Positions 9,328 to 45,038 of a stretch of 51,839 bases of DNA are shown piece by piece. Each line of letters starts with the position of its first letter. Position 1 is the first letter of the stretch. The translations under genes were made by a program, and so were the position numbers. The notes under the pieces are model-generated. The model saw nothing but the letters and a program-made list of their open reading frames with translations, searched no databases and was not told the DNA's origin. This DNA comes from a virus (Duplodnaviria > Caudoviricetes), in the IMG/VR virus record IMGVR_UViG_3300025608_000032, positions 1 to 51,839 of that record; one strand, given 5' to 3'.

Positions 9328-9354
9328 AATTTAAACTTTTTTAAATTTTTTTCT

Positions 9355-9383
9355 AAGCCCTTGATTCTCAAGGGCTTTTTTTT
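9355..9383 (+). terminator. Rho-independent terminator
   Basis: AAGCCCTTGA-TTC-TCAAGGGCTT plus T-tract; identical copy at 16640. Confidence 0.85.
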
Positions 9384-9404
9384 AGCTTTTTTTCTAGAAA
9401 ACGC

Positions 9405-9433
9405 TTGACTTGTTATGATAACAAGTGTATAGT
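9405..9433 (+). promoter_or_regulatory. early sigma70 promoter with palindromic spacer
   Basis: TTGACT-17-TATAGT; overlapping palindrome ACTTGTTAT-G-ATAACAAGT. Confidence 0.8.
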
Positions 9434-9464
9434 GTATATGTAAGTTGAGAGAAAGAGAGAAAAC

Positions 9465-13358: not shown

Positions 13359-13432
13359 GCGGGCATCGTATAATGGTAATACCTCAGATTTCCAATCTGA
13401 TGCTAGGAGTTCGATTCTCCTTGCCCGCTCCA
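13359..13432 (+). tRNA. tRNA-Gly(TCC)
   Basis: Cloverleaf; TCAGA-TTTCCAA-TCTGA; CCA. Confidence 0.95.
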
Positions 13433-15556: not shown

Positions 15557-16432
15557 ATGAGTTTCGAATTTGATTTCACTAAGGAACATCTACAGGAAAT
15601 CATTTCTGCTGATGCAGATGATTGGTATGATGCACTATGCGAACTACTACCAAAATATGGTATCACAACAGAACGTAGAGTTGCACACTTTCTAAGTCAG
15701 TGCGCTCATGAGTCTGGTGGTTTCAAACGACTAGAAGAAAACCTAAACTATTCTGCAAAGGCACTACGTTCAGTCTTTGGACGTTACTTTGGCGAACCCC
15801 CAAAGGCAGATGCAGATGAGTATGCCCGTAATCCAGAGATGATTGCCAATCGTGTATACAACGATGAGTATCGTAAGTATAAGATGGGCAACACTGAAGA
15901 GGGTGACGGTTGGCGTTTTCGTGGCCGTGGCCTGAAACAGTTGACAGGGCGTGACAACTACACTCGTTTCGGCAAGTCAGTTGATATGACTGCCGAAGAA
16001 GCGGCAGAGTATGTTGCAACTCCGGCGGGTGCGATTGAGTCTGCATGTTGGTTTTGGGATGCAAACAATCTAAACGATATTGCAGACACAGACAACGTTG
16101 TGAAGATGACTAAGAAGATTAACGGTGGCAACATCGGACTAGAAGATCGTCAGAAACGCTACACTCATGCAATGGAAGTCCTAGGCATGAGTGTCGAAGA
16201 CTTGGGTGCAGACGATGGTGACATTGAAGATATTCTAGATGATATCGGCGTTCTACGCAAAGGGTGTAAAGGTGAAGGCGTCAAACTGATGCAAGAAGCA
16301 TTGGGTATTGGTGCCGATGGTGACTTTGGCCCAGGCACAGAACGTGCATTGAAAGAGTGGCAAGCTGCAAACGGTTTGGTTGCAGATGGTATTGCAGGCC
16401 CTGCCACACTTGCTAAACTTTTTGAAGATTAA
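15557..16432 (+). CDS. endolysin: GH19 domain plus C-terminal peptidoglycan-binding domain
   Basis: FLSQCAHESGGF, GDGWRFRGRGLKQLTG, TKKINGG; PG_binding_1 motifs DGDFGPGT and DGIAGPAT. Confidence 0.93.
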   Translation: MSFEFDFTKEHLQEIISADADDWYDALCELLPKYGITTERRVAHFLSQCAHESGGFKRLEENLNYSAKALRSVFGRYFGEPPKADADEYARNPEMIANRVYNDEYRKYKMGNTEEGDGWRFRGRGLKQLTGRDNYTRFGKSVDMTAEEAAEYVATPAGAIESACWFWDANNLNDIADTDNVVKMTKKINGGNIGLEDRQKRYTHAMEVLGMSVEDLGADDGDIEDILDDIGVLRKGCKGEGVKLMQEALGIGADGDFGPGTERALKEWQAANGLVADGIAGPATLAKLFED

Positions 16433-16445
16433 TTTTAAAAAGTTC

Positions 16446-16474
16446 TTGACTATTAGTAGCTTATGGGTTACTAT
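16446..16474 (+). promoter_or_regulatory. sigma70-type promoter for the sRNA/tRNA-like unit
   Basis: TTGACT-17-TACTAT; predicted +1 near 16481. Confidence 0.65.
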
Positions 16475-16480
16475 AATAAA

Positions 16481-16540
16481 AGATGGTGAGGGCAACGCCT
16501 CTCTCTCAACTCTCTCTCTCACTAGTTGACTTCACCATCT
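16481..16540 (+). ncRNA. putative hairpin sRNA with CU-rich antisense loop
   Basis: 16-bp stem (one G-U, one mismatch) enclosing the loop GCCTCTCTCTCAACTCTCTCTCTCACTA; complementary to 29624-29651. Confidence 0.7.
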
Positions 16541-16544
16541 CACT

Positions 16545-16619
16545 GCGGTTGTAGTATAAAAGTATTACAGTTATCTTCCCGATAACAGATGGAGGTGCGA
16601 TTCCTACCCAACCGCTCCA
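16545..16619 (+). tRNA. atypical tRNA-Gly(TCC)-like RNA
   Basis: Perfect acceptor stem GCGGTTG/CAACCGC, U73 and CCA; no GG in D-loop, C37, T-loop TGCGATT, bulged T-stem. Confidence 0.8.
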
Positions 16620-16639
16620 TTTTTTTCTACTTCTTAGAT

Positions 16640-16668
16640 AAGCCCTTGATTCTCAAGGGCTTTTTTTT
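16640..16668 (+). terminator. Rho-independent terminator
   Basis: Identical to 9355-9383. Confidence 0.85.
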
Positions 16669-16680
16669 AGCTAAAAACGC

Positions 16681-16708
16681 TTGACTTTGTTCTCAGAACA
16701 TGTATAAT
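16681..16708 (+). promoter_or_regulatory. early sigma70 promoter with palindromic spacer
   Basis: TTGACT-16-TATAAT; spacer TGTTCT-C-AGAACA. Confidence 0.8.
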
Positions 16709-16739
16709 ATAGGTATAGATTGAGAAAAGAGAGACAAAT

Positions 16740-17153
16740 ATGAACTATATTCAAGTCAACGGTGGTAACAAGTTCCAGAGAGAGATTGCCGAGAAGGTAG
16801 TCGGTTTCTGTATCAAAGAACTGTTACCTCGCTTTCGAACTCTAGAAATCACTGTCAACATCAAGAAAATCAAGGGTGATGCCGTTGGTTACTGTATGAT
16901 GGAAGACACTAACCGTGAGTTTGAGATTGAGATTAGTCGTGAACTAACCCTCAAAGATTTTATTACCACACTCACCCATGAGATGGTTCACGTTAAGCAG
17001 TATGCTCGCAACGAAATGGATGGGTATAGTAATCGTTGGAAGAAAGCGAAAGTCAAAGAGGGAACCAACTATTGGGAACTTCCTTGGGAAAAGGAAGCCT
17101 ATCGTCTACAGGACAAGTTGGCACAGATGGTTTGGGATGCAGATATACTATGA
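16740..17153 (+). CDS. HEXXH zinc metallopeptidase-like (SprT-like) protein
   Basis: TLTHEMVHVKQY...PWEKEAY. Confidence 0.8.
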   Translation: MNYIQVNGGNKFQREIAEKVVGFCIKELLPRFRTLEITVNIKKIKGDAVGYCMMEDTNREFEIEISRELTLKDFITTLTHEMVHVKQYARNEMDGYSNRWKKAKVKEGTNYWELPWEKEAYRLQDKLAQMVWDADIL

Positions 17154-21521: not shown

Positions 21522-21552
21522 TTGACAAATACACTGTGATGGTGTATAAATA
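21522..21552 (+). promoter_or_regulatory. overlapping sigma70 and late promoter for tmRNA
   Basis: TTGACA-17-TATAAA; the -10 box extends to TATAAATA. Confidence 0.7.
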
Positions 21553-21557
21553 AAGTA

Positions 21558-21875
21558 TTCGATGATGTTGATCGAAAGGTAGTTTGGACGTGGGTGCGAT
21601 TCCCACCACCTCCACCATAGATACACCTACAACTCTGAGAGAGTAGACCGAAAGGTGAAATAGTAGGGGAAGAACGTGGTGTATCTATGATGGGGGTGAA
21701 TAGGTTCGACAGGCTAATGATTAGAGATACGGAGAATCGTCAACGCAGAAGACGTTAGGGTTGGGAGTTCTCGGCCGAAGAAGCACAAAAAGTAACTGCA
21801 AACGATAGCACTTACGCATTGGCAGCCTAATCGCTGACTAGGGTTTCGGGGTTCCTCGTAACAGAATACCCCAAC
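21558..21875 (+). ncRNA. ssrA: two-piece (permuted) tmRNA
   Basis: Acceptor piece ends CACCTCC-A-CCA (21617); paired intervening segment; coding piece starts GGGGGTG (21692) with G3-U70; tag ANDSTYALAA* at 21798-21830; ends approximate. Confidence 0.92.
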
Positions 21876-21898
21876 AAAATCCCTTACCTTGGGATCGT

Positions 21899-21925
21899 GA
21901 CCTGAGTATGTCCCTAAACTGCTCA
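21899..21925 (+). other. H-type pseudoknot motif (copy 1)
   Basis: GAC-CTGAGTAT-GTC-cctaaac-TGCTCA. Confidence 0.5.
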
Positions 21926-26656: not shown

Positions 26657-26741
26657 GGTGAACTAGTTAGAGTATCCTTGATGTGCAGTAAGTCTCTCTG
26701 AGTCGTAACACCACATCGAAAAGACTAGGTAGTAAAGAGTG

Positions 26742-26773
26742 AAGGAGTGGGTATTTTTTATCCACTCCTTTTT
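26742..26773 (+). terminator. Rho-independent terminator
   Basis: AAGGAGTGGGTA...TATCCACTCCTT plus T-tract. Confidence 0.8.
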
Positions 26774-26780
26774 CTTTTTG

Positions 26781-26788
26781 TATAAATA
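26781..26788 (+). promoter_or_regulatory. T4-type late promoter for the exported-protein operon
   Basis: TATAAATA directly after the terminator. Confidence 0.7.
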
Positions 26789-26820: not shown

Positions 26821-27396
26821 ATGACCATGATTAGATTGATGGCAGTGGTGATGTTTATCGCCATGAGTGGTGTTGCCCATGCACAAGATTATACTGGTAG
26901 CGGTGCGTTAGACGATCCAATCGCAACGCACTCAACTACCGATTCTACTGTTACCACAAATGGTAACATGAATACCACAATCAACCAACCTCCTCCATCT
27001 GCGATTTCCCCTTCCTTCAGTAGTGGGAATAATAGTGACTTATGCACTATTGGTGTAGCTGGAGCCGTTCAGACTCAGATTTTGGGTATCAGTGCCGGCA
27101 CGACTTTTACAGAAGAGAACTGTATTCGTCTAAAAAATGCCAAGACACTATACGATATGGGTATGAAAGTTGCAGCAGTATCAGTGATGTGTCAAGATGA
27201 AAAAGTCTTTGATGCAATGTTACATGCTGGAACACCTTGTCCTTATAATGGCACTATTGGTGAAGCGGCACGACTTGGGTGGGAAACTCATGTCGAAACA
27301 ACTCGTAGAGAATTAGAGGAGAGCAATAAACCAAGTGTTAAAGAGACTATCACTTTCGGTGGCCTTGGTATTTTGGGCACACTCCTCTTATTCTGA
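26821..27396 (+). CDS. exported Cys-containing protein with C-terminal anchor
   Basis: Signal peptide (VAHA); PPPSAISPS, DLCTIG, NCIRLK, MCQD, GTPCP; hydrophobic C-terminus. Confidence 0.8.
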   Translation: MTMIRLMAVVMFIAMSGVAHAQDYTGSGALDDPIATHSTTDSTVTTNGNMNTTINQPPPSAISPSFSSGNNSDLCTIGVAGAVQTQILGISAGTTFTEENCIRLKNAKTLYDMGMKVAAVSVMCQDEKVFDAMLHAGTPCPYNGTIGEAARLGWETHVETTRRELEESNKPSVKETITFGGLGILGTLLLF

Positions 27397-28243
27397 GTCA
27401 ATAACTCCCTATGGTGGGCAGACAGGTAACGCTGCCGCCGGTGGAAATGCTTGGAGTATGGGAAGTGTTCTACCAGAACCGCCTGGCTTAAGTATCAATG
27501 GTGTGATATACAATTACACTATTCGTAAGAATGTAGATGATTCTGTGACAGTCAATGTGCAGAATGAGAATGCATTGGGGTCAGGATATATCTTCAGAGA
27601 GACAGATAGATGGTTGCCTGGCTCATTGGATGGAACAGAGATTAACAAAGTTGTTCCAGTAAATCCTGGCATTCATCGTAGTCATTGGGGTAATGGTTCT
27701 ATTGACGTTGAAGGTAATGGAAGTGTCGATAACCCGACAGTCCTCTATACCTACACAGTCGATCCTTGTTATAATCCTCAATTTGACCCGAACTGCCCTG
27801 GCTACGAAGTTCAAGTGCCAGACATATACCAAGTGAACCTAGACGATATCTATAATCCATTGAACGATGAGAATATTGATTTCGATAGGACTACTGATTT
27901 GGAACTTACTGAGACAGAAGATGAAGAAGAACTCAGTGAAGAAGAGTTAGCAGAGAAGGAAGAGGAAGAGGAAGAAGAGCGGGCGATGAGACTAGAGGAT
28001 GCACTTGCAGAAGCAGGACGTTCACTTATGTTTGCAAACGCACTTGCACAGTCTCAAGTTTTGGCATCTGTAAATGCCGCAACCAATATGAACAGTTACT
28101 ATTCTCGCACAATTCCTGGCGGGACATATAAAGAAAATGTTGTGTTAGTCGATAAGCAGTTACCTGAGAACAGGCGTGGATTGAGAAATGGACTTGCACA
28201 ACAGTTATTGCATCAACAGATGGTTGAGTCGCAATACAAGTAA
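27335..28243 (+). CDS. exported protein with beta-rich domain and acidic linker
   Basis: Signal peptide; DPCYNPQFDPNCPGY; poly-Glu tract. Confidence 0.75.
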   Translation: MLKRLSLSVALVFWAHSSYSESITPYGGQTGNAAAGGNAWSMGSVLPEPPGLSINGVIYNYTIRKNVDDSVTVNVQNENALGSGYIFRETDRWLPGSLDGTEINKVVPVNPGIHRSHWGNGSIDVEGNGSVDNPTVLYTYTVDPCYNPQFDPNCPGYEVQVPDIYQVNLDDIYNPLNDENIDFDRTTDLELTETEDEEELSEEELAEKEEEEEEERAMRLEDALAEAGRSLMFANALAQSQVLASVNAATNMNSYYSRTIPGGTYKENVVLVDKQLPENRRGLRNGLAQQLLHQQMVESQYK

Positions 28244-28284
28244 ATGATGATAATATTATAATAACAATAAACTAGGAGAACGAA

Positions 28285-28794
28285 ATGTTCAAAAAACAAA
28301 TGCTAGGAGCAGCTGCAATGGTTGTTGCATCTTCTACCTTTGCGCTTGCTGAAAACGTTCCGATTACAGGAACCGTTCAGTCCAAATGTATTATCGTCAC
28401 AGATAGTGCTGGTGTGTATGGAAACCCGAATGCCTACACACTATCAACCGCTGCAGCTGATGGTGGTGCAGATGCGGTTGTTCGTATTGATGTAACTTTG
28501 GCAGATGCGTATAATGCTCATATTACTGCACCGTCTGAATTTTCTTCAAGTCCATCCTTACCAGACATTCCAACTTTTGCTGGGGACACAGAAGTAAAAG
28601 CAGTATCAGATGCAACTGGTATGGGCTCATATGAAACTAACAAGGTGGAACAGGGTATGAAAGACATTTATGACTTGACTGCTACTGGTTCAACTTGGTT
28701 CAAAACCTCTTCAACTGCCACGATGGGTGGTAGTAAAGCATTCCCAGGCGGCAACTATACTGCCTTGGTAACAGTAGAGTGTATTGCGAAATAA
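28285..28794 (+). CDS. exported pilin/spore-coat-U (Csu)-like subunit
   Basis: Signal peptide (ALA); ITGTVQSKC near the N-terminus and PGGNYTALVTVEC at the C-terminus resemble fimbrial subunits. Confidence 0.55.
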   Translation: MFKKQMLGAAAMVVASSTFALAENVPITGTVQSKCIIVTDSAGVYGNPNAYTLSTAAADGGADAVVRIDVTLADAYNAHITAPSEFSSSPSLPDIPTFAGDTEVKAVSDATGMGSYETNKVEQGMKDIYDLTATGSTWFKTSSTATMGGSKAFPGGNYTALVTVECIAK

Positions 28795-28809
28795 TATAAA
28801 GGAAAGATA

Positions 28810-29184
28810 ATGAAAAAGTTGATAGTTATGTTGTTGGTGTTGTTTCCTCTGGCAGTTAATGCACACGAAATGACACCAACATATCCTAAGTTGACACCAT
28901 CCCATTTGGATAACGTCTATAAGACAACAATGGAGATGTTCAACAAAAGAGAAGATGTGGAATACTATGAGATTGGGGTGTTCGATAAGGACATGAGCCC
29001 AATCCCATTTGTAACTTCCTACACAATATTACAAATCAGATATCTTGGACATGTTCAGTTTGATATTTACATTCGTAAATCAGATGTTTCAAGAGCAGAA
29101 TATGTTTGTTCTACTTCTAAGTTGAGAAAAGATAATACGACAACAACGAAGATTACATCCAAAATATGTTCTAGGTTCAAGTGA
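28810..29184 (+). CDS. exported Ig-fold, fimbrial-chaperone-like protein
   Basis: Signal peptide (VNA); HEMTPTY..., NKREDVEYYEI, YVCSTS, ICSRF; single-domain size. Confidence 0.45.
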   Translation: MKKLIVMLLVLFPLAVNAHEMTPTYPKLTPSHLDNVYKTTMEMFNKREDVEYYEIGVFDKDMSPIPFVTSYTILQIRYLGHVQFDIYIRKSDVSRAEYVCSTSKLRKDNTTTTKITSKICSRFK

Positions 29185-29199
29185 GAGTGAGAGAAGAGA

Positions 29200-29622
29200 A
29201 TGAGAAAGATATGGATTGCACTACTTACAGGTTTCATTAGTAGTAGTGCATATGCAGACAGTAGTTCGATAGGTTTACAACTACCGTCTGCTGGTTCGTC
29301 TTATGGACAGGACAGTATTCGTGCTGGAGACTTGGACTGCAAAAATGCTATCGGTGGTGCGACTCAATTGGAGTTTGGAGTCACTGGTGTAATTGACAAT
29401 TATGAAAGTCCCTTTGGTGGTAGTAATGGTTTACCCTCAGAGAAGAATGTTGGGGTATTCGCAAGAATTGTAATACCACTAGATGGGCCCAAAGAAAGAA
29501 TAAACTGCAACTCTTTGTATGAGTTAGAACTGCGAAAGAAGAGAATCGAAGTTCTTAAACTACAAGAAGAGTTAGAGGCATTACGAAGACTTAACCAGAA
29601 CGGTGGAGGGTTCGAAAATTAA
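29200..29622 (+). CDS. exported protein with beta-hairpin and C-terminal coiled coil
   Basis: Signal peptide (AYA); VGVFARIVIPL, INCNSLYELEL. Confidence 0.75.
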   Translation: MRKIWIALLTGFISSSAYADSSSIGLQLPSAGSSYGQDSIRAGDLDCKNAIGGATQLEFGVTGVIDNYESPFGGSNGLPSEKNVGVFARIVIPLDGPKERINCNSLYELELRKKRIEVLKLQEELEALRRLNQNGGGFEN

Positions 29623-29654
29623 ACAACTTGTGAGAGAGTTGAGAGAGAGGCATT

Positions 29655-30071
29655 ATGAAAGATTGGATAATGGTAATGGTGGGTGTCTTTATGATATCTG
29701 CCGTGTTTACATACGAAGCAGTTGCAAACGAAAATAATACGATGATTGAGGCATGTCTGTATAAGAATGGATATTCGCCTGAGAAGTTTGATACATTTGA
29801 GTGGAATGTTGCCGCTGCATGTTATCAGAACTACAAGACACAGAAGAACGCAGAACAACTTGCAGAGTTGCGTGATTTTCTGAAACATAATCCAAGATAC
29901 AGATATCCTGGCCAGAGCAATAACAAGTGTTTTGGTAAACCCAGAGAGATGCCTTTTGAGACTGCATACATTGAACGTAATGGTGATGGTTTCAAGGCAG
30001 GGGTAACATATAAGGATAAAATGCCTGCTGGGTGCTTTGAGACGGCACCTTGGGATAATAGAGAGAAATAG
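29655..30071 (+). CDS. exported Cys-containing hypothetical protein (putative sRNA target)
   Basis: N-terminal hydrophobic signal; leader GAGAGAGTTGAGAGAGAGGC. Confidence 0.75.
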   Translation: MKDWIMVMVGVFMISAVFTYEAVANENNTMIEACLYKNGYSPEKFDTFEWNVAAACYQNYKTQKNAEQLAELRDFLKHNPRYRYPGQSNNKCFGKPREMPFETAYIERNGDGFKAGVTYKDKMPAGCFETAPWDNREK

Positions 30072-30082
30072 AGAGAGGGAAC

Positions 30083-30685
30083 ATGTCAGAAAAAGACTTA
30101 GGACAAGAGTTAGAGAATATCGAAGAAGGCATTGAGAACCTTAAGAACAAAGAGTTCAGACTCTTAGGTATTAAGATGACTCCAATGACTGTATCTGCAC
30201 TCGTAGCTGGTATTGCATCTATCATCGGTTCACTGTATGGTGGATTCTTAATGTATCAGAAGGTAGAACAGGCAATTGCATTCGTAGAACAACAAGAAGA
30301 ATACGAACAGAAGATTGCTGGATTCGAAGAACAGATGACTCTGATGAAATCTGAAGTGGATCAAACCATTGAGTATGCTCGTGATATCAAAGGTGGTTTG
30401 CGTGATGACATTCTTGCAATCGAAAAACAAGTTGACCGTATGGAAGACAAGTTGCGTGAACAAGAAGCAGATAACAGAGAAATTATTCAGAATGCAGAAG
30501 AACGTTTTGAGAACAAGAGAGATGCTCTACAAAACGACTACGATGAGAAAGCAAACAGATTGAGTGAATCATCCTCTTCCAGAATGACTGACTTGGAAAA
30601 CAAGATGGAAAGAGACATGAAAGACCTTGAAGATCGTATCAACAAACGACTTCAGCGGGCATTGGATAACCCACTTGCAAATTAA
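30083..30685 (+). CDS. membrane-anchored long coiled-coil protein
   Basis: TM segment then heptad repeats ending ALDNPLAN. Confidence 0.8.
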   Translation: MSEKDLGQELENIEEGIENLKNKEFRLLGIKMTPMTVSALVAGIASIIGSLYGGFLMYQKVEQAIAFVEQQEEYEQKIAGFEEQMTLMKSEVDQTIEYARDIKGGLRDDILAIEKQVDRMEDKLREQEADNREIIQNAEERFENKRDALQNDYDEKANRLSESSSSRMTDLENKMERDMKDLEDRINKRLQRALDNPLAN

Positions 30686-31188
30686 TGAAACATCTTCTAT
30701 TATGCACTCCACTCTTCCTACTGATGGGGTGTGGACAAGTCACGTCTGAATATGATAGGCGAACAGTAAAAACAGTTCATTCTGATATTATTGTATCTGC
30801 ATATGCATATCATGGGTTTTCTGAGACTACACACAGAAGTGAACTAAGAGAACTCACTGGAGTTGATCCAGTTCAAACTGAATGGTGTGCTGCATATGTC
30901 AATGCCATCTTACAACAAAATGATATAGAGGGTTCTGATAGTGTATCTGAATATCCCCTAACTGCCAGAAGTTTCCTCGCATGGGGAACTCCAGTTAAAG
31001 AACCTAAATCTGGTGATGTTGTGATTTTTCCTAGAGGCGAGCCATGGCAAGGCCATGTTGGGTTCTATGTTAGAACTGCAATATTCAATGGGGAGAAACA
31101 CTATGTGATTTTGGGCGGGAATCAAGATGATAGTGTATCACTTGAATATTATCCCGCCTCAAAAGCGATTGGTATCAGACGACCTTAG
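30685..31188 (+). CDS. NlpC/P60 (TIGR02594-like) peptidoglycan hydrolase lipoprotein
   Basis: Lipobox LMGC; WCAAYVN, ARSFL.WG, GHVGFY and LGGNQ motifs. Confidence 0.85.
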   Translation: MKHLLLCTPLFLLMGCGQVTSEYDRRTVKTVHSDIIVSAYAYHGFSETTHRSELRELTGVDPVQTEWCAAYVNAILQQNDIEGSDSVSEYPLTARSFLAWGTPVKEPKSGDVVIFPRGEPWQGHVGFYVRTAIFNGEKHYVILGGNQDDSVSLEYYPASKAIGIRRP

Positions 31189-33502: not shown

Positions 33503-33835
33503 TTATTTCTTTTTGAGTGCGTCTGCTCCAAAGAAAGCAGATACCAGCACAGCGATTGATGCAAAGTAAGTTGGAGCGATATCTGCAATCAAAGTTGCGG
33601 CTTTGTCCATACCGAATGCAGAGGTTACTGCAATACCAGCTGGATATACTAGGAGTCCGATAAGTGAGAACCATGCCATTTTACGAATAGCATCTCTCTG
33701 TGCATCGGCGTCTTCAAGTGCTTTACGTTTGAATTCCAAGTGCATATCCATTTCTTCTTTGGAGATGTGTCCATCACCATTTGTATCAATTTCAGATGCT
33801 AGTGATGCATCTATTGTTGTTTTCTCTTCTGCCAT
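33503..33835 (-). CDS. EF-hand-containing 2-TM membrane protein
   Basis: DTNGDGHISKEE loop; two C-terminal TM helices. Confidence 0.75.
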   Translation of the reverse strand: MAEEKTTIDASLASEIDTNGDGHISKEEMDMHLEFKRKALEDADAQRDAIRKMAWFSLIGLLVYPAGIAVTSAFGMDKAATLIADIAPTYFASIAVLVSAFFGADALKKK

Positions 33836-33863
33836 AACTCTCTCTCTCCTTATTATGAACTAT

Positions 33864-40498: not shown

Positions 40499-40528
40499 AA
40501 GCCCCTGTTTTTACAGGGGCTTTTTTTT
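40499..40528 (+). terminator. Rho-independent terminator
   Basis: AAGCCCCTGT-TTTT-ACAGGGGCTT plus T-tract. Confidence 0.85.
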
Positions 40529-40539
40529 AGCGAAAACGC

Positions 40540-40567
40540 TTGACTTTGTTCTCAAAACATGTATAAT
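40540..40567 (+). promoter_or_regulatory. early sigma70 promoter with palindromic spacer
   Basis: TTGACT-16-TATAAT; spacer TGTTCTCAAAACA. Confidence 0.8.
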
Positions 40568-40832: not shown

Positions 40833-41330
40833 ATGACATTATATTTGGATATGGACGGTGTTTTGGCTGACTTCTTCAGTGCATTTGCCAAACGGTTCGG
40901 TAAAGAACACTGGAAAATGATACAGGATAAAGAGAAGGCAATCACACAGTTGCAACATACTGATTTCTTCAACACATTGGAGAAGTTTGAGACTGCTGAT
41001 GAGTTGATTGAGTTCGCTCGTTCTACTGGTGATTGGGGAATCTGCTCTTCACCATTGCGTGGAGATCGTGATAACTCTGCATACTGGAAACGTGTCTGGT
41101 TGACTCGTATGGGTTATGTGCCAGATATCGACAAGATGATTTTCACTGGTATGAAAGAGAAGTATGCAACTGATCCGATTGATGGAACGCCAAACATCCT
41201 AGTGGACGACAAACCATCTAACATTGACCGCTGGGTTAAGAAAGGTGGGATAGGTTTTCTCTATCAGGCGAATGAGAACGATATAAAAGAATTGCTAAAA
41301 AACTTGAAAAAAGTGCTAGAAAACGCTTGA
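40833..41330 (+). CDS. HAD-family 5'(3')-deoxyribonucleotidase-like protein
   Basis: YLDMDGVLADF, K..W and ILVDDK motifs. Confidence 0.85.
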   Translation: MTLYLDMDGVLADFFSAFAKRFGKEHWKMIQDKEKAITQLQHTDFFNTLEKFETADELIEFARSTGDWGICSSPLRGDRDNSAYWKRVWLTRMGYVPDIDKMIFTGMKEKYATDPIDGTPNILVDDKPSNIDRWVKKGGIGFLYQANENDIKELLKNLKKVLENA

Positions 41331-41355
41331 CTTGTTCTCAGAACATTCGTATAAT
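41327..41355 (+). promoter_or_regulatory. early sigma70 promoter with palindromic spacer
   Basis: TTGACT-17-TATAAT; spacer TGTTCT-C-AGAACA. Confidence 0.8.
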
Positions 41356-41388
41356 GTATATGTAAGTTGAGAGAAAGAGGTAAAAGAT

Positions 41389-43601: not shown

Positions 43602-44229
43602 TCATGTGCATTATTCGGTGAATATTCACCAAATCAACGATGAGGCTCGTGCAAAACTCAAAGAGATGTTTGGGCGAATTCGAACTGATAACAACTATCG
43701 TTGGTTCTCTGATATCTTTGTTGAGGGCGACTTGACATATGAAGAGACAGAGAAGTATGCGTGGACAACAGAACACATTGGCCCTAAGTGGTGTTACTTT
43801 GAAGACTTTGATGCAGATGAAAAGGAACCGTTTTTTAACGGTGAGGCGGCATGGAGCGCACCTGAGACGGGGCTAGAGAAACTACTAACTATTCTGACAG
43901 AATATGACCCTAACATCATTACATCTATTTGTTATGAAGATGAAATGCCCAACTTCATTGGTGTATCAGTCTACGAAGGCGATGAGATGTATGACGGTTT
44001 CGAAGATGAGTATGAAGAACTCCGTGATCGTGTGATTGCATCATCTGAAACCCTTACTGAAGAGTCTTGGAATGAAGACGAAGACGAATGGGTTGATGAG
44101 GACGCCGAAGACACATTCCGTGATGAAATGTGGGAAGTAATCAACGACTCACAGTGGGAACTAGTTTCTGAATGTGTTGACCAAATCAAAGCAGACCAAG
44201 CAGAGCGAGAATCAACAGTCGGATGTTGA
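43594..44229 (+). CDS. acidic hypothetical protein (DUF1281/Api92-like motifs)
   Basis: MANHV..., GPKW, AWSAP and YEDE motifs. Confidence 0.65.
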   Translation: MANHVHYSVNIHQINDEARAKLKEMFGRIRTDNNYRWFSDIFVEGDLTYEETEKYAWTTEHIGPKWCYFEDFDADEKEPFFNGEAAWSAPETGLEKLLTILTEYDPNIITSICYEDEMPNFIGVSVYEGDEMYDGFEDEYEELRDRVIASSETLTEESWNEDEDEWVDEDAEDTFRDEMWEVINDSQWELVSECVDQIKADQAERESTVGC

Positions 44230-45038
44230 CAATGAAACCAGTGGACTATAGAGTCGCTACCTTGTTTGTGCAAGAGCGTCACTATAGTCCAGTTATGCCT
44301 AAACTCACTAAACACTATTTGGGTGCTTACCAAGACGATGAATTGGTGGGCATTTTGACGTTGGGGTGGGGGACTAATCCTATGGGGACAATCAAGAAGA
44401 TGTTCCCAGAACTAACCACAGAACACTACTTTGAGATTGGTAAGATGTGCATGGATGATGCCATGCCTCGCAACTCAGAGTCGCAAATGATGGCTGGTGC
44501 AATTCACTGGATGAAGAAGAACACACCAGAGAAGATGTATCTCTACACATGGGCAGATGGGATTGTGGGTAAGCCAGGATATGTCTATCAGGCAGGCAAC
44601 TTCCTGTATGGTGGTTTCATTTGGAGTGATGTATACGTCACTGAAGAGGGTGAGAAAGTCCACTTCAGAACGATTCAACGCAAGATGAAGAAAGAGATGG
44701 GTAGGGACGATTTGAAGTATGGCCCTCGACCTAATGACGCCAAGATGGGTGAATTAGGGTTCTCTCGTGTATGGGGTAAACAGTTTCGTTATATCTACCC
44801 TATCACAAAACAGGCACGCCGTTATCTAAAATCAGACAAAACCACTATGGATTGGACACTACCATATCCAAAAGACAAAGACTTGCAATGGAAAATAAAG
44901 AAGCCAGGCGAGACAGAATATCGCTTGACAAATGAGATGCCTTATGACTATAATGGCTCCAGTGTTAGACATAATTCTAGTAATGTGAATAAGGTGATAG
45001 ACAAATATGGAAGCGCAACACTCGAACAGTTCATGTGA
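44223..45038 (+). CDS. Mom-like adenine modification (GNAT) enzyme
   Basis: HYS, EIGKMC...PRNSES, YTWADG..GKPGYVYQAGNFLYGG and K.FRYIY motifs. Confidence 0.75.
   Translation: MLTMKPVDYRVATLFVQERHYSPVMPKLTKHYLGAYQDDELVGILTLGWGTNPMGTIKKMFPELTTEHYFEIGKMCMDDAMPRNSESQMMAGAIHWMKKNTPEKMYLYTWADGIVGKPGYVYQAGNFLYGGFIWSDVYVTEEGEKVHFRTIQRKMKKEMGRDDLKYGPRPNDAKMGELGFSRVWGKQFRYIYPITKQARRYLKSDKTTMDWTLPYPKDKDLQWKIKKPGETEYRLTNEMPYDYNGSSVRHNSSNVNKVIDKYGSATLEQFM

Follow-up and report, generated by a model that had tools for sequence, protein, structure and literature searches.

What is made from the short unit that follows the endolysin gene of this phage, and on which messages would it act? Positions 16446–16668 carry, in this order, a promoter, a hairpin with a C/U-rich loop, a tRNA-like element, and a terminator. 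The window, i.e., the whole stretch of DNA that was analyzed, is a virus record of 51.8 kb (51,839 nucleotides), which was assigned to a T4-like phage by its genes for primase, ribonucleotide reductase, PhoH, gp59, gp32, and baseplate proteins. It also encodes eight tRNAs and a permuted tmRNA. An alphaproteobacterial host is suggested because this tmRNA is of alphaproteobacterial type, and the sequencing runs that contain window DNA point to a marine setting. The tmRNA lies at 21525–21921, with the tag ANDSTYALAA; the tags differ in related phages. The unit and its upstream neighbor comprise the following features.

15557–16432, plus strand: endolysin gene with a GH19-like and a peptidoglycan-binding domain (PHROG 181, Pfam), the usual upstream neighbor of the hairpin
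16446–16474, plus strand: sigma70-type promoter of the putative sRNA, with −35 TTGACT, 17 nt, and −10 TACTAT (by sequence; seen across hairpin units)
16454–16473, plus strand: inverted repeat that spans the −10 box, covaries, and includes G.U pairs (comparison of promoter folding), likely an RNA hairpin of the endolysin read-through transcript
16481–16540, plus strand: hairpin of the putative sRNA, 15 pairs and one mismatch (folding, stem covariation)
16497–16524, plus strand: 28-nt CU-repeat loop, two CU runs separated by AA, the predicted pairing region (sequence, alignment, pairing energies)
16545–16619, plus strand: atypical tRNA-Gly(UCC) (40.4 bits against RF00005; its anticodon stem covaries in L192 and L221)
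16640–16668, plus strand: intrinsic terminator, stem 16640–16662 plus T run (by sequence; contigs from RNA libraries end nearby, a weak hint)

The promoter, the 28-nt loop, the tRNA-like gene 4 nt past the hairpin, and the terminator behind it had all been proposed in the initial annotation and were recovered here. The 16-bp stem proposed there was corrected: it has 16 positions, but one of these is a G.A mismatch, which leaves 15 pairs. The folding energy of the whole unit corresponded to z = −4.9, and none of 200 shuffled sequences was equally stable. Contigs from the RNA libraries of two studies run from the endolysin gene through the unit and end at 16633 and 16635, at the terminator. These ends are only a weak hint because the contigs give no strand, start, or level, and they may hold DNA. 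The span of the RNA contigs, X1 and X2, does not include positions 29624–29651, where the main predicted target lies, so they speak neither for nor against that target. The endolysin transcript is the likely source of read-through RNA into the unit. Separately, cassettes composed of a terminator, an early promoter, and a leader are repeated in the window at 9354–9457, 16639–16710, 40517–40560, and 41316–41379, with direct repeats of 34, 25, 22, and 21 nt within them.

The hairpin recurs in related phages. Eighty endolysin-anchored loci were found by protein similarity, with the loop left out of the search; 19 of them had the hairpin, and 17 of these 19 had the same loop core. A 16-nt loop pattern retrieved 118 viral stretches, and 72 of the 121 matches that were examined fell within a hairpin loop (40 distinct). 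From these, 34 sequences were aligned (A1). Matches judged to be chance or ambiguous (L165, L166, L173, L191, L237, and L258) were left out, and 8 matches at contig edges were skipped. Because A1 was collected by the loop core, the invariance of the loop in this alignment is by construction, and the endolysin-anchored set serves as the unbiased check. The stem was paired in 95% of the cells of the alignment, and 7 of the 9 consensus pairs had changed on both sides. This covariation was matched by none of 500 shuffles, and slid controls scored much lower.

The promoter is conserved as well. Over all loci, a sigma70 promoter preceded 56 of 65 distinct hairpin units, with a 17-nt spacer in 52. 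The nine promoterless units were judged to be true variants (five) or chance matches (four); in the variants L049 and L440, the hairpin directly follows the endolysin stop codon. The promoter spacer folded onto the −10 box at −2 kcal/mol or better in all 33 distinct family promoters (one of which, L356, is probably a chance match), compared to 16 of 90 other sigma70-like sites. We infer that this inverted repeat acts as an RNA hairpin of the read-through transcript rather than as a DNA operator, because its left arm tracks the variant of the −10 box and G.U pairs are tolerated. A hairpin variant that has no terminator was also seen directly in the leader of a SprT-like gene (L288:18526–18610, genome G002).

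A search with Rfam 15 over 16400–16760 agreed with the earlier impression that this architecture belongs to no recognized family: only the tRNA passed, and the best sRNA-type match scored 19 bits or less against thresholds of 39–55. Annotated phage records gave no meaningful match to 16440–16700. Cellular genome contigs gave 11 pattern matches, none above 24 bits with the model, and thus no hint to the host, because no cellular family member was found. When model R1 was run on 100 records behind loci anchored on the operon, gp32, or ORF 29655, clear hairpins were found in 5 and a tentative member in one; the absence of the hairpin from the remaining records means little because most of them are fragments. 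For L318, L327, L328, and L335, the sequence was limited to the 10-kb flank of the hairpin, and their operons lie outside it. A literature search that included the loop sequence found no description, and six supplementary files of PMC10690425 contained no match; the family may be among the 8,495 IMG/VR candidates of that paper. The hairpin at 16481–16540 is a conserved element of these phages, and a small RNA is likely made from it.

The loop matches a distant site in the same genome. Positions 16497–16516 are the exact reverse complement of 29632–29651, which ends 3 nt before the ATG at 29655, as the initial annotation had stated. No other distant inverted match in the window is as long as these 20 nt (the next has 17 nt), and none of 100 dinucleotide shuffles reached this length or gave two matches. 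In 180 further shuffles that preserved 2-, 4-, or 6-mers, none reached 20 nt, and a chance inverted repeat was rejected as an explanation. One of these shuffles reached 19 nt, so the length of the match alone is rare but not astronomically rare. Its telling part is the placement, in the loop on one side and on a ribosome-binding site (RBS) on the other. The extended pairing over 29624–29651, with 27 of 28 nt paired, was reproduced; this 27-pair duplex requires opening at the top of the stem.

Pairing energies were calculated for all 97 initiation regions of the window with our own RNAup-like script and simple gene calls, counting the opening costs of both RNAs. This calculation was preferred to RNAcofold, which gave near-zero gains for early leaders, because RNAcofold forbids loop kissing. 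The four best sites were as follows.

29624–29651, plus strand: main predicted target, over the RBS of ORF 29655 (27 of 28 nt paired), −31.4 kcal/mol, rank 1 of 97
29180–29204, plus strand: predicted site ranked second of 97 (−24.9 kcal/mol), on the RBS and start of ORF 29200
30060–30078, plus strand: predicted site ranked third of 97 (−24.5 kcal/mol), on the RBS of ORF 30083
33824–33855, minus strand: predicted site ranked fourth of 97 (−22.7 kcal/mol), on the RBS and start of ORF 33835–33503, which encodes a small membrane protein

The median of the 97 regions was −4.2. The four best are all late leaders, and the top three are adjacent in the export operon. When the AA was moved within the loop, the window site weakened from −42.3 to between −33.3 and −40.3. 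The hairpins of L183, L187, L200, and L254 paired with the window site at −50.7 and its own hairpin at −46.1, which indicates no lineage-specific compensation at this site because hairpins of relatives pair better than its own. The proposal of an sRNA aimed at the RBS of one gene in the late operon therefore stands in part: the hairpin belongs to a conserved, structured, putative sRNA gene and ORF 29655 is its best predicted target, but a single target is too narrow, given the three further late leaders at −22 to −25 and a related subclade in which the best-fitting site lies at another gene. By this pairing, the loop is likely to damp the translation of ORF 29655.

The predicted target gene belongs to an operon behind gp32.

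26781–26788, plus strand: T4-type late promoter motif, before the export operon (match to the consensus)
26821–31188, plus strand: export operon behind gp32, composed of ORFs 26821–29655 (N termini resembling signal peptides, as judged by eye), followed by ORF 30083 and by gene 30685 of the CHAP/TIGR02594 type
29655–30071, plus strand: predicted target gene, 138 aa, with a signal-peptide-like N terminus and four invariant Cys (605 homologues, alignment)

Most genes of this operon have signal-peptide-like N termini, as read by eye. The product of ORF 29655 had no match in Pfam, NCBIfam, PHROG, the PDB folds, or the Atlas, and its structural model (pLDDT 67) had no Foldseek match at E 0.001. Among 120 of its homologues (P0001–P0120), 54 start with MRE, MRA, or MRD, and these codons lie within the pairing site in L085 and G004. 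ORF 28285 may be a Csu-type pilin, as weakly suggested by its Atlas match (rank 22, score 0.95, with PF05229 on 15% of the members) and by a low-confidence single-sequence model (pLDDT 43.5) that gave CfaB and Csu rows at E 0.02–0.06; a search of Pfam gave no match.

The place behind gp32 is variable. In G004, it holds a curli operon with CsgF, CsgG, curlin repeats, FecR, and a CHASE2 cyclase. The pilin-like operon (26821–31188 in the window) and the curli operon (L294:6205–13463, minus strand) alternate there in related phages, either type can contain an ORF 29655 homologue, and G002 and G005 have neither. A conserved noncoding element, possibly another structured RNA, lies between the gp32 stop codon and its terminator in the window (26672–26745) and in many relatives (L300:3060–3135, minus strand; L086, L429, L432, L453, and L463), with no Rfam family near threshold. 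A curli operon is also carried by pelagimyophages (PMC7029224); in our relatives, the csgF, csgG, and curlin-repeat genes sit behind gp32, where the window has the pilin-like operon instead. A term search of the main text of that paper found no mention of tmRNA, sRNA, or noncoding RNA, and relative to this text, the new element would be a predicted RNA regulator of such an operon.

The site at ORF 29655 is kept in L086 and L124. Among 46 distinct leaders of ORF 29655 homologues (two short loci were skipped in this count), seven pair at −30.8 or better, and the next reaches −21.6. All seven strong leaders carry gp32 or cyclase markers close to those of hairpin-bearing phages, so they apparently belong to the hairpin clade. 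In G004, the best of 64 regions was again the ORF 29655 homologue (−26.1), followed by the first gene of the curli operon (−23.2), and the next region reached only −12.9. The curli-leader site recurs in G010 and G057. With the four hairpins from its own subclade, its contiguous pairing spans 22 pairs, compared to 11–18 with the other 32 hairpins, and this fit is the clearest sign of co-adaptation between hairpin and target. The curli site of G004 is located 5′ of the RBS position, its pairing does not respond to the AA shift, and its leader folds on itself. Because of its position and of this folding, pairing there could activate, as RepG does with long G repeats (PMC8295292), or do nothing. 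The curli-operon leader (L294:13463–13540, minus strand; L300:2902–2980, minus strand; L425:14480–14553) has a small hairpin and two pairings that exclude each other. Pieces of the sRNA loop recur in its 3′ arm, and the leader could be an sRNA-operated switch.

Other relatives define the limits of this picture. In G002 and G005, gp32 is not followed by an export operon, and a strong site is likewise absent. L447, L448, and L440 have variant hairpins and at least part of a curli operon but no strong site, so the export-operon target is not universal. Six further curli operons, taken irrespective of the hairpin (L449, L461, L443, L438, L455, and L458), gave nothing better than about −26 in raw duplex energy. 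In the 118 kb of G001, there was no match to the operon, and the best site was an early leader. The complete genome G099 has a tentative member of the hairpin family, weak at 22.7 bits, with a 13-nt exact match on the RBS of its ORF 26821 homologue that is tied for the longest in 342 kb. By energy, this homologue ranks 6 and its neighbor 4 of 413 regions, and the leader of a SprT-like gene is the top site. Overall, the loop is conserved more widely than any single target. Strong support comes from two independent subclades only, and the hairpin and the ORF 29655 leader occur on one contig only in the window and G004. Of the co-conservation of loop and target that the earlier proposal expects, complementary leaders were seen in two subclades, one of them with a curli site that best fits its own hairpin variant, and were absent from L440, L447, and L448. 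As a separate observation, a long hairpin with one GA-rich and one CU-rich arm is conserved in L448 (7870–7915), L447, L449, L461, and L443, where it precedes a small gene.

The wide conservation of the loop could be explained if a protein, or an RNA of the host, is its partner; the late sites with perfect pairing would then be sponges that titrate the sRNA in late infection, or by-products of GA-rich leaders. The loop core does persist in phages that have no strong site in their own genome, leaders with GA repeats are common in the clade, and the strong sites lie at different genes in different subclades. We nevertheless consider this unlikely, since the window site lies exactly over the RBS, the sites in L085 and G004 lie over the start codon, and both strong sites reach into the 3′ strand of the stem, as strand invasion predicts.

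A second alternative, to which we also give a low probability, is that the sRNA is mainly a general silencer of early leaders, its own or those of a superinfecting relative, with the late sites as lineage-specific recruits. TTGAGA, the complement of the loop center, occurs in 17 of 85 early leaders compared to 13 of 771 other leaders. Early leaders of the window reach about −12 to −15 kcal/mol, the best of them ranking 6–8 of 97 at −14 to −15, and early leaders rank first in G001, G003, L328, and L354. In addition, the loops of L049 and L440 resemble the complement of the early-leader start, and in G099 it is the leader of the SprT-like gene that ranks first, as mentioned above. However, the energies of early leaders are about half those of the late sites, and their mean duplex energy was −12.0 compared to −9.9 for shuffled loops, with no change upon the AA shift. 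Early leaders differed from other leaders at P < 0.01 in only 2 of 19 fragments. They would therefore be weaker, possibly ancestral targets of the sRNA.

The third element of the unit is the atypical tRNA, for which two further genes of the window are relevant.

13359–13432, plus strand: canonical tRNA-Gly(UCC) of this phage, in view of which the atypical copy is not needed for decoding
44223–45038, plus strand: Mom-family DNA modification gene (PF25680, 163.7 bits; PHROG 1384), a possible user of the atypical tRNA-Gly

The atypical tRNA-Gly has A at position 18, UGC in the T-loop, C37, and a bulged T stem, together with an intact acceptor stem, U73, and CCA. It was missed by ARAGORN and by the fast Rfam scan, and it scored 40.4 bits against RF00005 with permissive filters (gathering score 29). 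The identity elements of tRNA-Gly are G1-C72, U73, CCA, and the UCC anticodon; all of these are present, on a cloverleaf above the gathering score. Its D-arm motif retrieved 47 viral stretches in 39 distinct contexts, 35 of which hold the atypical tRNA type (23 distinct sequences). The UCC anticodon and G at T-loop position 55 were present in all 35, only three of which were called by ARAGORN. This family is therefore largely invisible to standard annotation. Members with A18 and G55 (16545–16619 in the window; L607–L653) are widespread and often stand alone behind their own promoter; L607 has the atypical tRNA in tandem with a canonical tRNA-Gly, and in L644 this D arm is combined with a Thr anticodon.

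The initial annotation had viewed the tRNA-like element as a tag for RNase P that releases the hairpin. Its start 4 nt past the stem would suit this role, as would the altered decoding features with the acceptor and T arms kept, and the presence of a canonical tRNA-Gly elsewhere in the phage. As a requirement, however, the tag is not supported: among 56 distinct promoter-bearing hairpin units, 30 have no tRNA, 22 have a canonical tRNA-Gly, and 4 have the atypical one. Conversely, the hairpin precedes the atypical tRNA in only 10 of its 35 contexts; in the other 25 there is no such hairpin in front, and the tRNA lies behind a promoter (20) or elsewhere (5). The UCC anticodon kept in all 35 would also be unneeded by a mere tag. 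That the element exists only for this release is thus very unlikely, and the atypical tRNA-Gly is likely a separate gene. Several relatives have a single tRNA-Gly, either in the upstream cluster or behind the hairpin. This phage has one in both places, so its atypical copy appears free of decoding duty, and it is probably a co-transcribed passenger with a role of its own outside normal decoding.

Mom uses Gly-tRNA, and a Mom gene is encoded in the window. The atypical tRNA-Gly could be a charged, non-ribosomal donor of glycine, e.g., for this Mom-type DNA modification enzyme, a tentative suggestion that lies apart from the sRNA question and that we would not put above a modest chance. A T-loop TGC or TGT marks the non-proteogenic tRNA-Gly of staphylococci (PMC7826273), and the phage copy likewise has TGC in place of TTC. 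The G at T-loop position 55 in all 35 contexts agrees with these tRNAs (PMC7826273), and the copy in the window has A51-U63 instead of the G51-C63 pair that is named for EF-Tu affinity (PMC12256121). The staphylococcal NP1-3 tRNAs (PMC7826273, PMC12256121) also share the UCC anticodon; the phage copy differs by A18, C37, and the bulged T stem, and no Fem-type partner was identified for it. Against a glycine donor, L192 and L221 retain G51-C63. Furthermore, a relative of the window Mom was found in none of 40 records, 22 of them carrying the tRNA motif, in a search of mostly short fragments that had no positive control.

Given the anatomy of the unit, its covarying stem, the conserved promoter, and the complementarity, we favor, at slightly better than an even chance, a mechanism in which the CU loop pairs with the GA-repeat RBS regions of the phage's own late export operon, most strongly at ORF 29655, and lowers or delays their translation. 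The host sigma70 polymerase would make the sRNA early, and cutting of the read-through transcript of the endolysin gene would yield a second supply, probably late. In this phage, the 3′ end of the sRNA would be trimmed when RNase P matures the tRNA, and relatives that have no tRNA would use the terminator. Contact by the loop would then spread into the top of the stem and form a duplex of 20–27 bp over the RBS, which would keep the ribosome off ORF 29655 and, less tightly, off its neighbors. As a result, the last genes of the operon (29200, 29655, and 30083) would be repressed more than the first. Such repression could set the timing or the stoichiometry of phage proteins sent to the host envelope: the envelope-bound proteins would be held back until late transcripts outnumber the sRNA, or would be adjusted in their ratio to the upstream subunits. 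A more general reading is possible but on balance doubtful, namely that across lytic marine T4-like phages a single CU-loop sRNA, with an early and a late supply, silences pilus-like and curli operons at their GA-repeat RBSs, with one near-perfect site per lineage, and shares its transcript with a tRNA-Gly that has been rewired away from decoding and takes part in a separate glycine transfer.

As judged by sequence comparison, the hairpin is a real, uncatalogued family of putative phage sRNAs with a credible target in its own genome. If the favored mechanism holds, RNA pairing by a conserved sRNA that is directed at the phage's own late genes would be a further means of timing in the lytic T4-like phages that infect marine alphaproteobacteria. 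The sRNA would also offer a way into the curli and pilus-like operons of marine myophages, which lack an explanation (PMC7029224): if the phage keeps an RNA to restrain these operons, their dose or timing matters to infection. With its site of 20–27 bp, the leader can be tested directly against the sRNA in a reporter.

According to a review (PMC12197685), the trans-acting small RNAs whose targets are defined are known mostly from temperate phages, prophages, and satellites. SviR of the Vibrio cholerae PLE (bioRxiv 10.1101/2022.04.08.487710) is a conserved trans-acting sRNA that lowers the translation of lytic-phage genes, as is predicted here; it is encoded by a satellite and not by a phage, and it is likened to our sRNA by its mode of action alone. 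The closer parallels are RepG and c4. In Helicobacter pylori, RepG uses a C/U-rich hairpin loop to bind, in trans, a purine repeat within the leader of an operon related to the envelope, and either repression or activation can result (PMC8295292). The phage hairpin shares the C/U-rich loop and, in two subclades, a complementary purine repeat in such a leader; it also has its own gene with promoter and terminator, and its loop is unpaired on a conserved stem. In contrast, RepG is chromosomal, uses a terminator loop, and targets a G homopolymer (PMC8295292), whereas the phage RNA comes from a lytic phage, has a loop of 22–28 nt with CU repeats on a dedicated stem, and faces GA repeats in the phage's own late genes. 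The c4 RNA of phages P1 and P7 (PMC5320573) pairs via its loops with its own phage mRNA, occludes an RBS, and is matured by host RNase P, all features that are predicted here. Membership in c4 was rejected because the unit has a single hairpin rather than three stem-loops with a′ and b′ loops, and Rfam gave no C4 match. In c4, which serves temperate phages in the control of immunity, RNase P cuts the RNA itself at the 5′ end (PMC5320573); the hairpin described here belongs to a T4-like phage, and any RNase P cut would be made at its 3′ side via a separate tRNA. By analogy, the hairpin sRNA is predicted to act like RepG and c4 as a member of neither.
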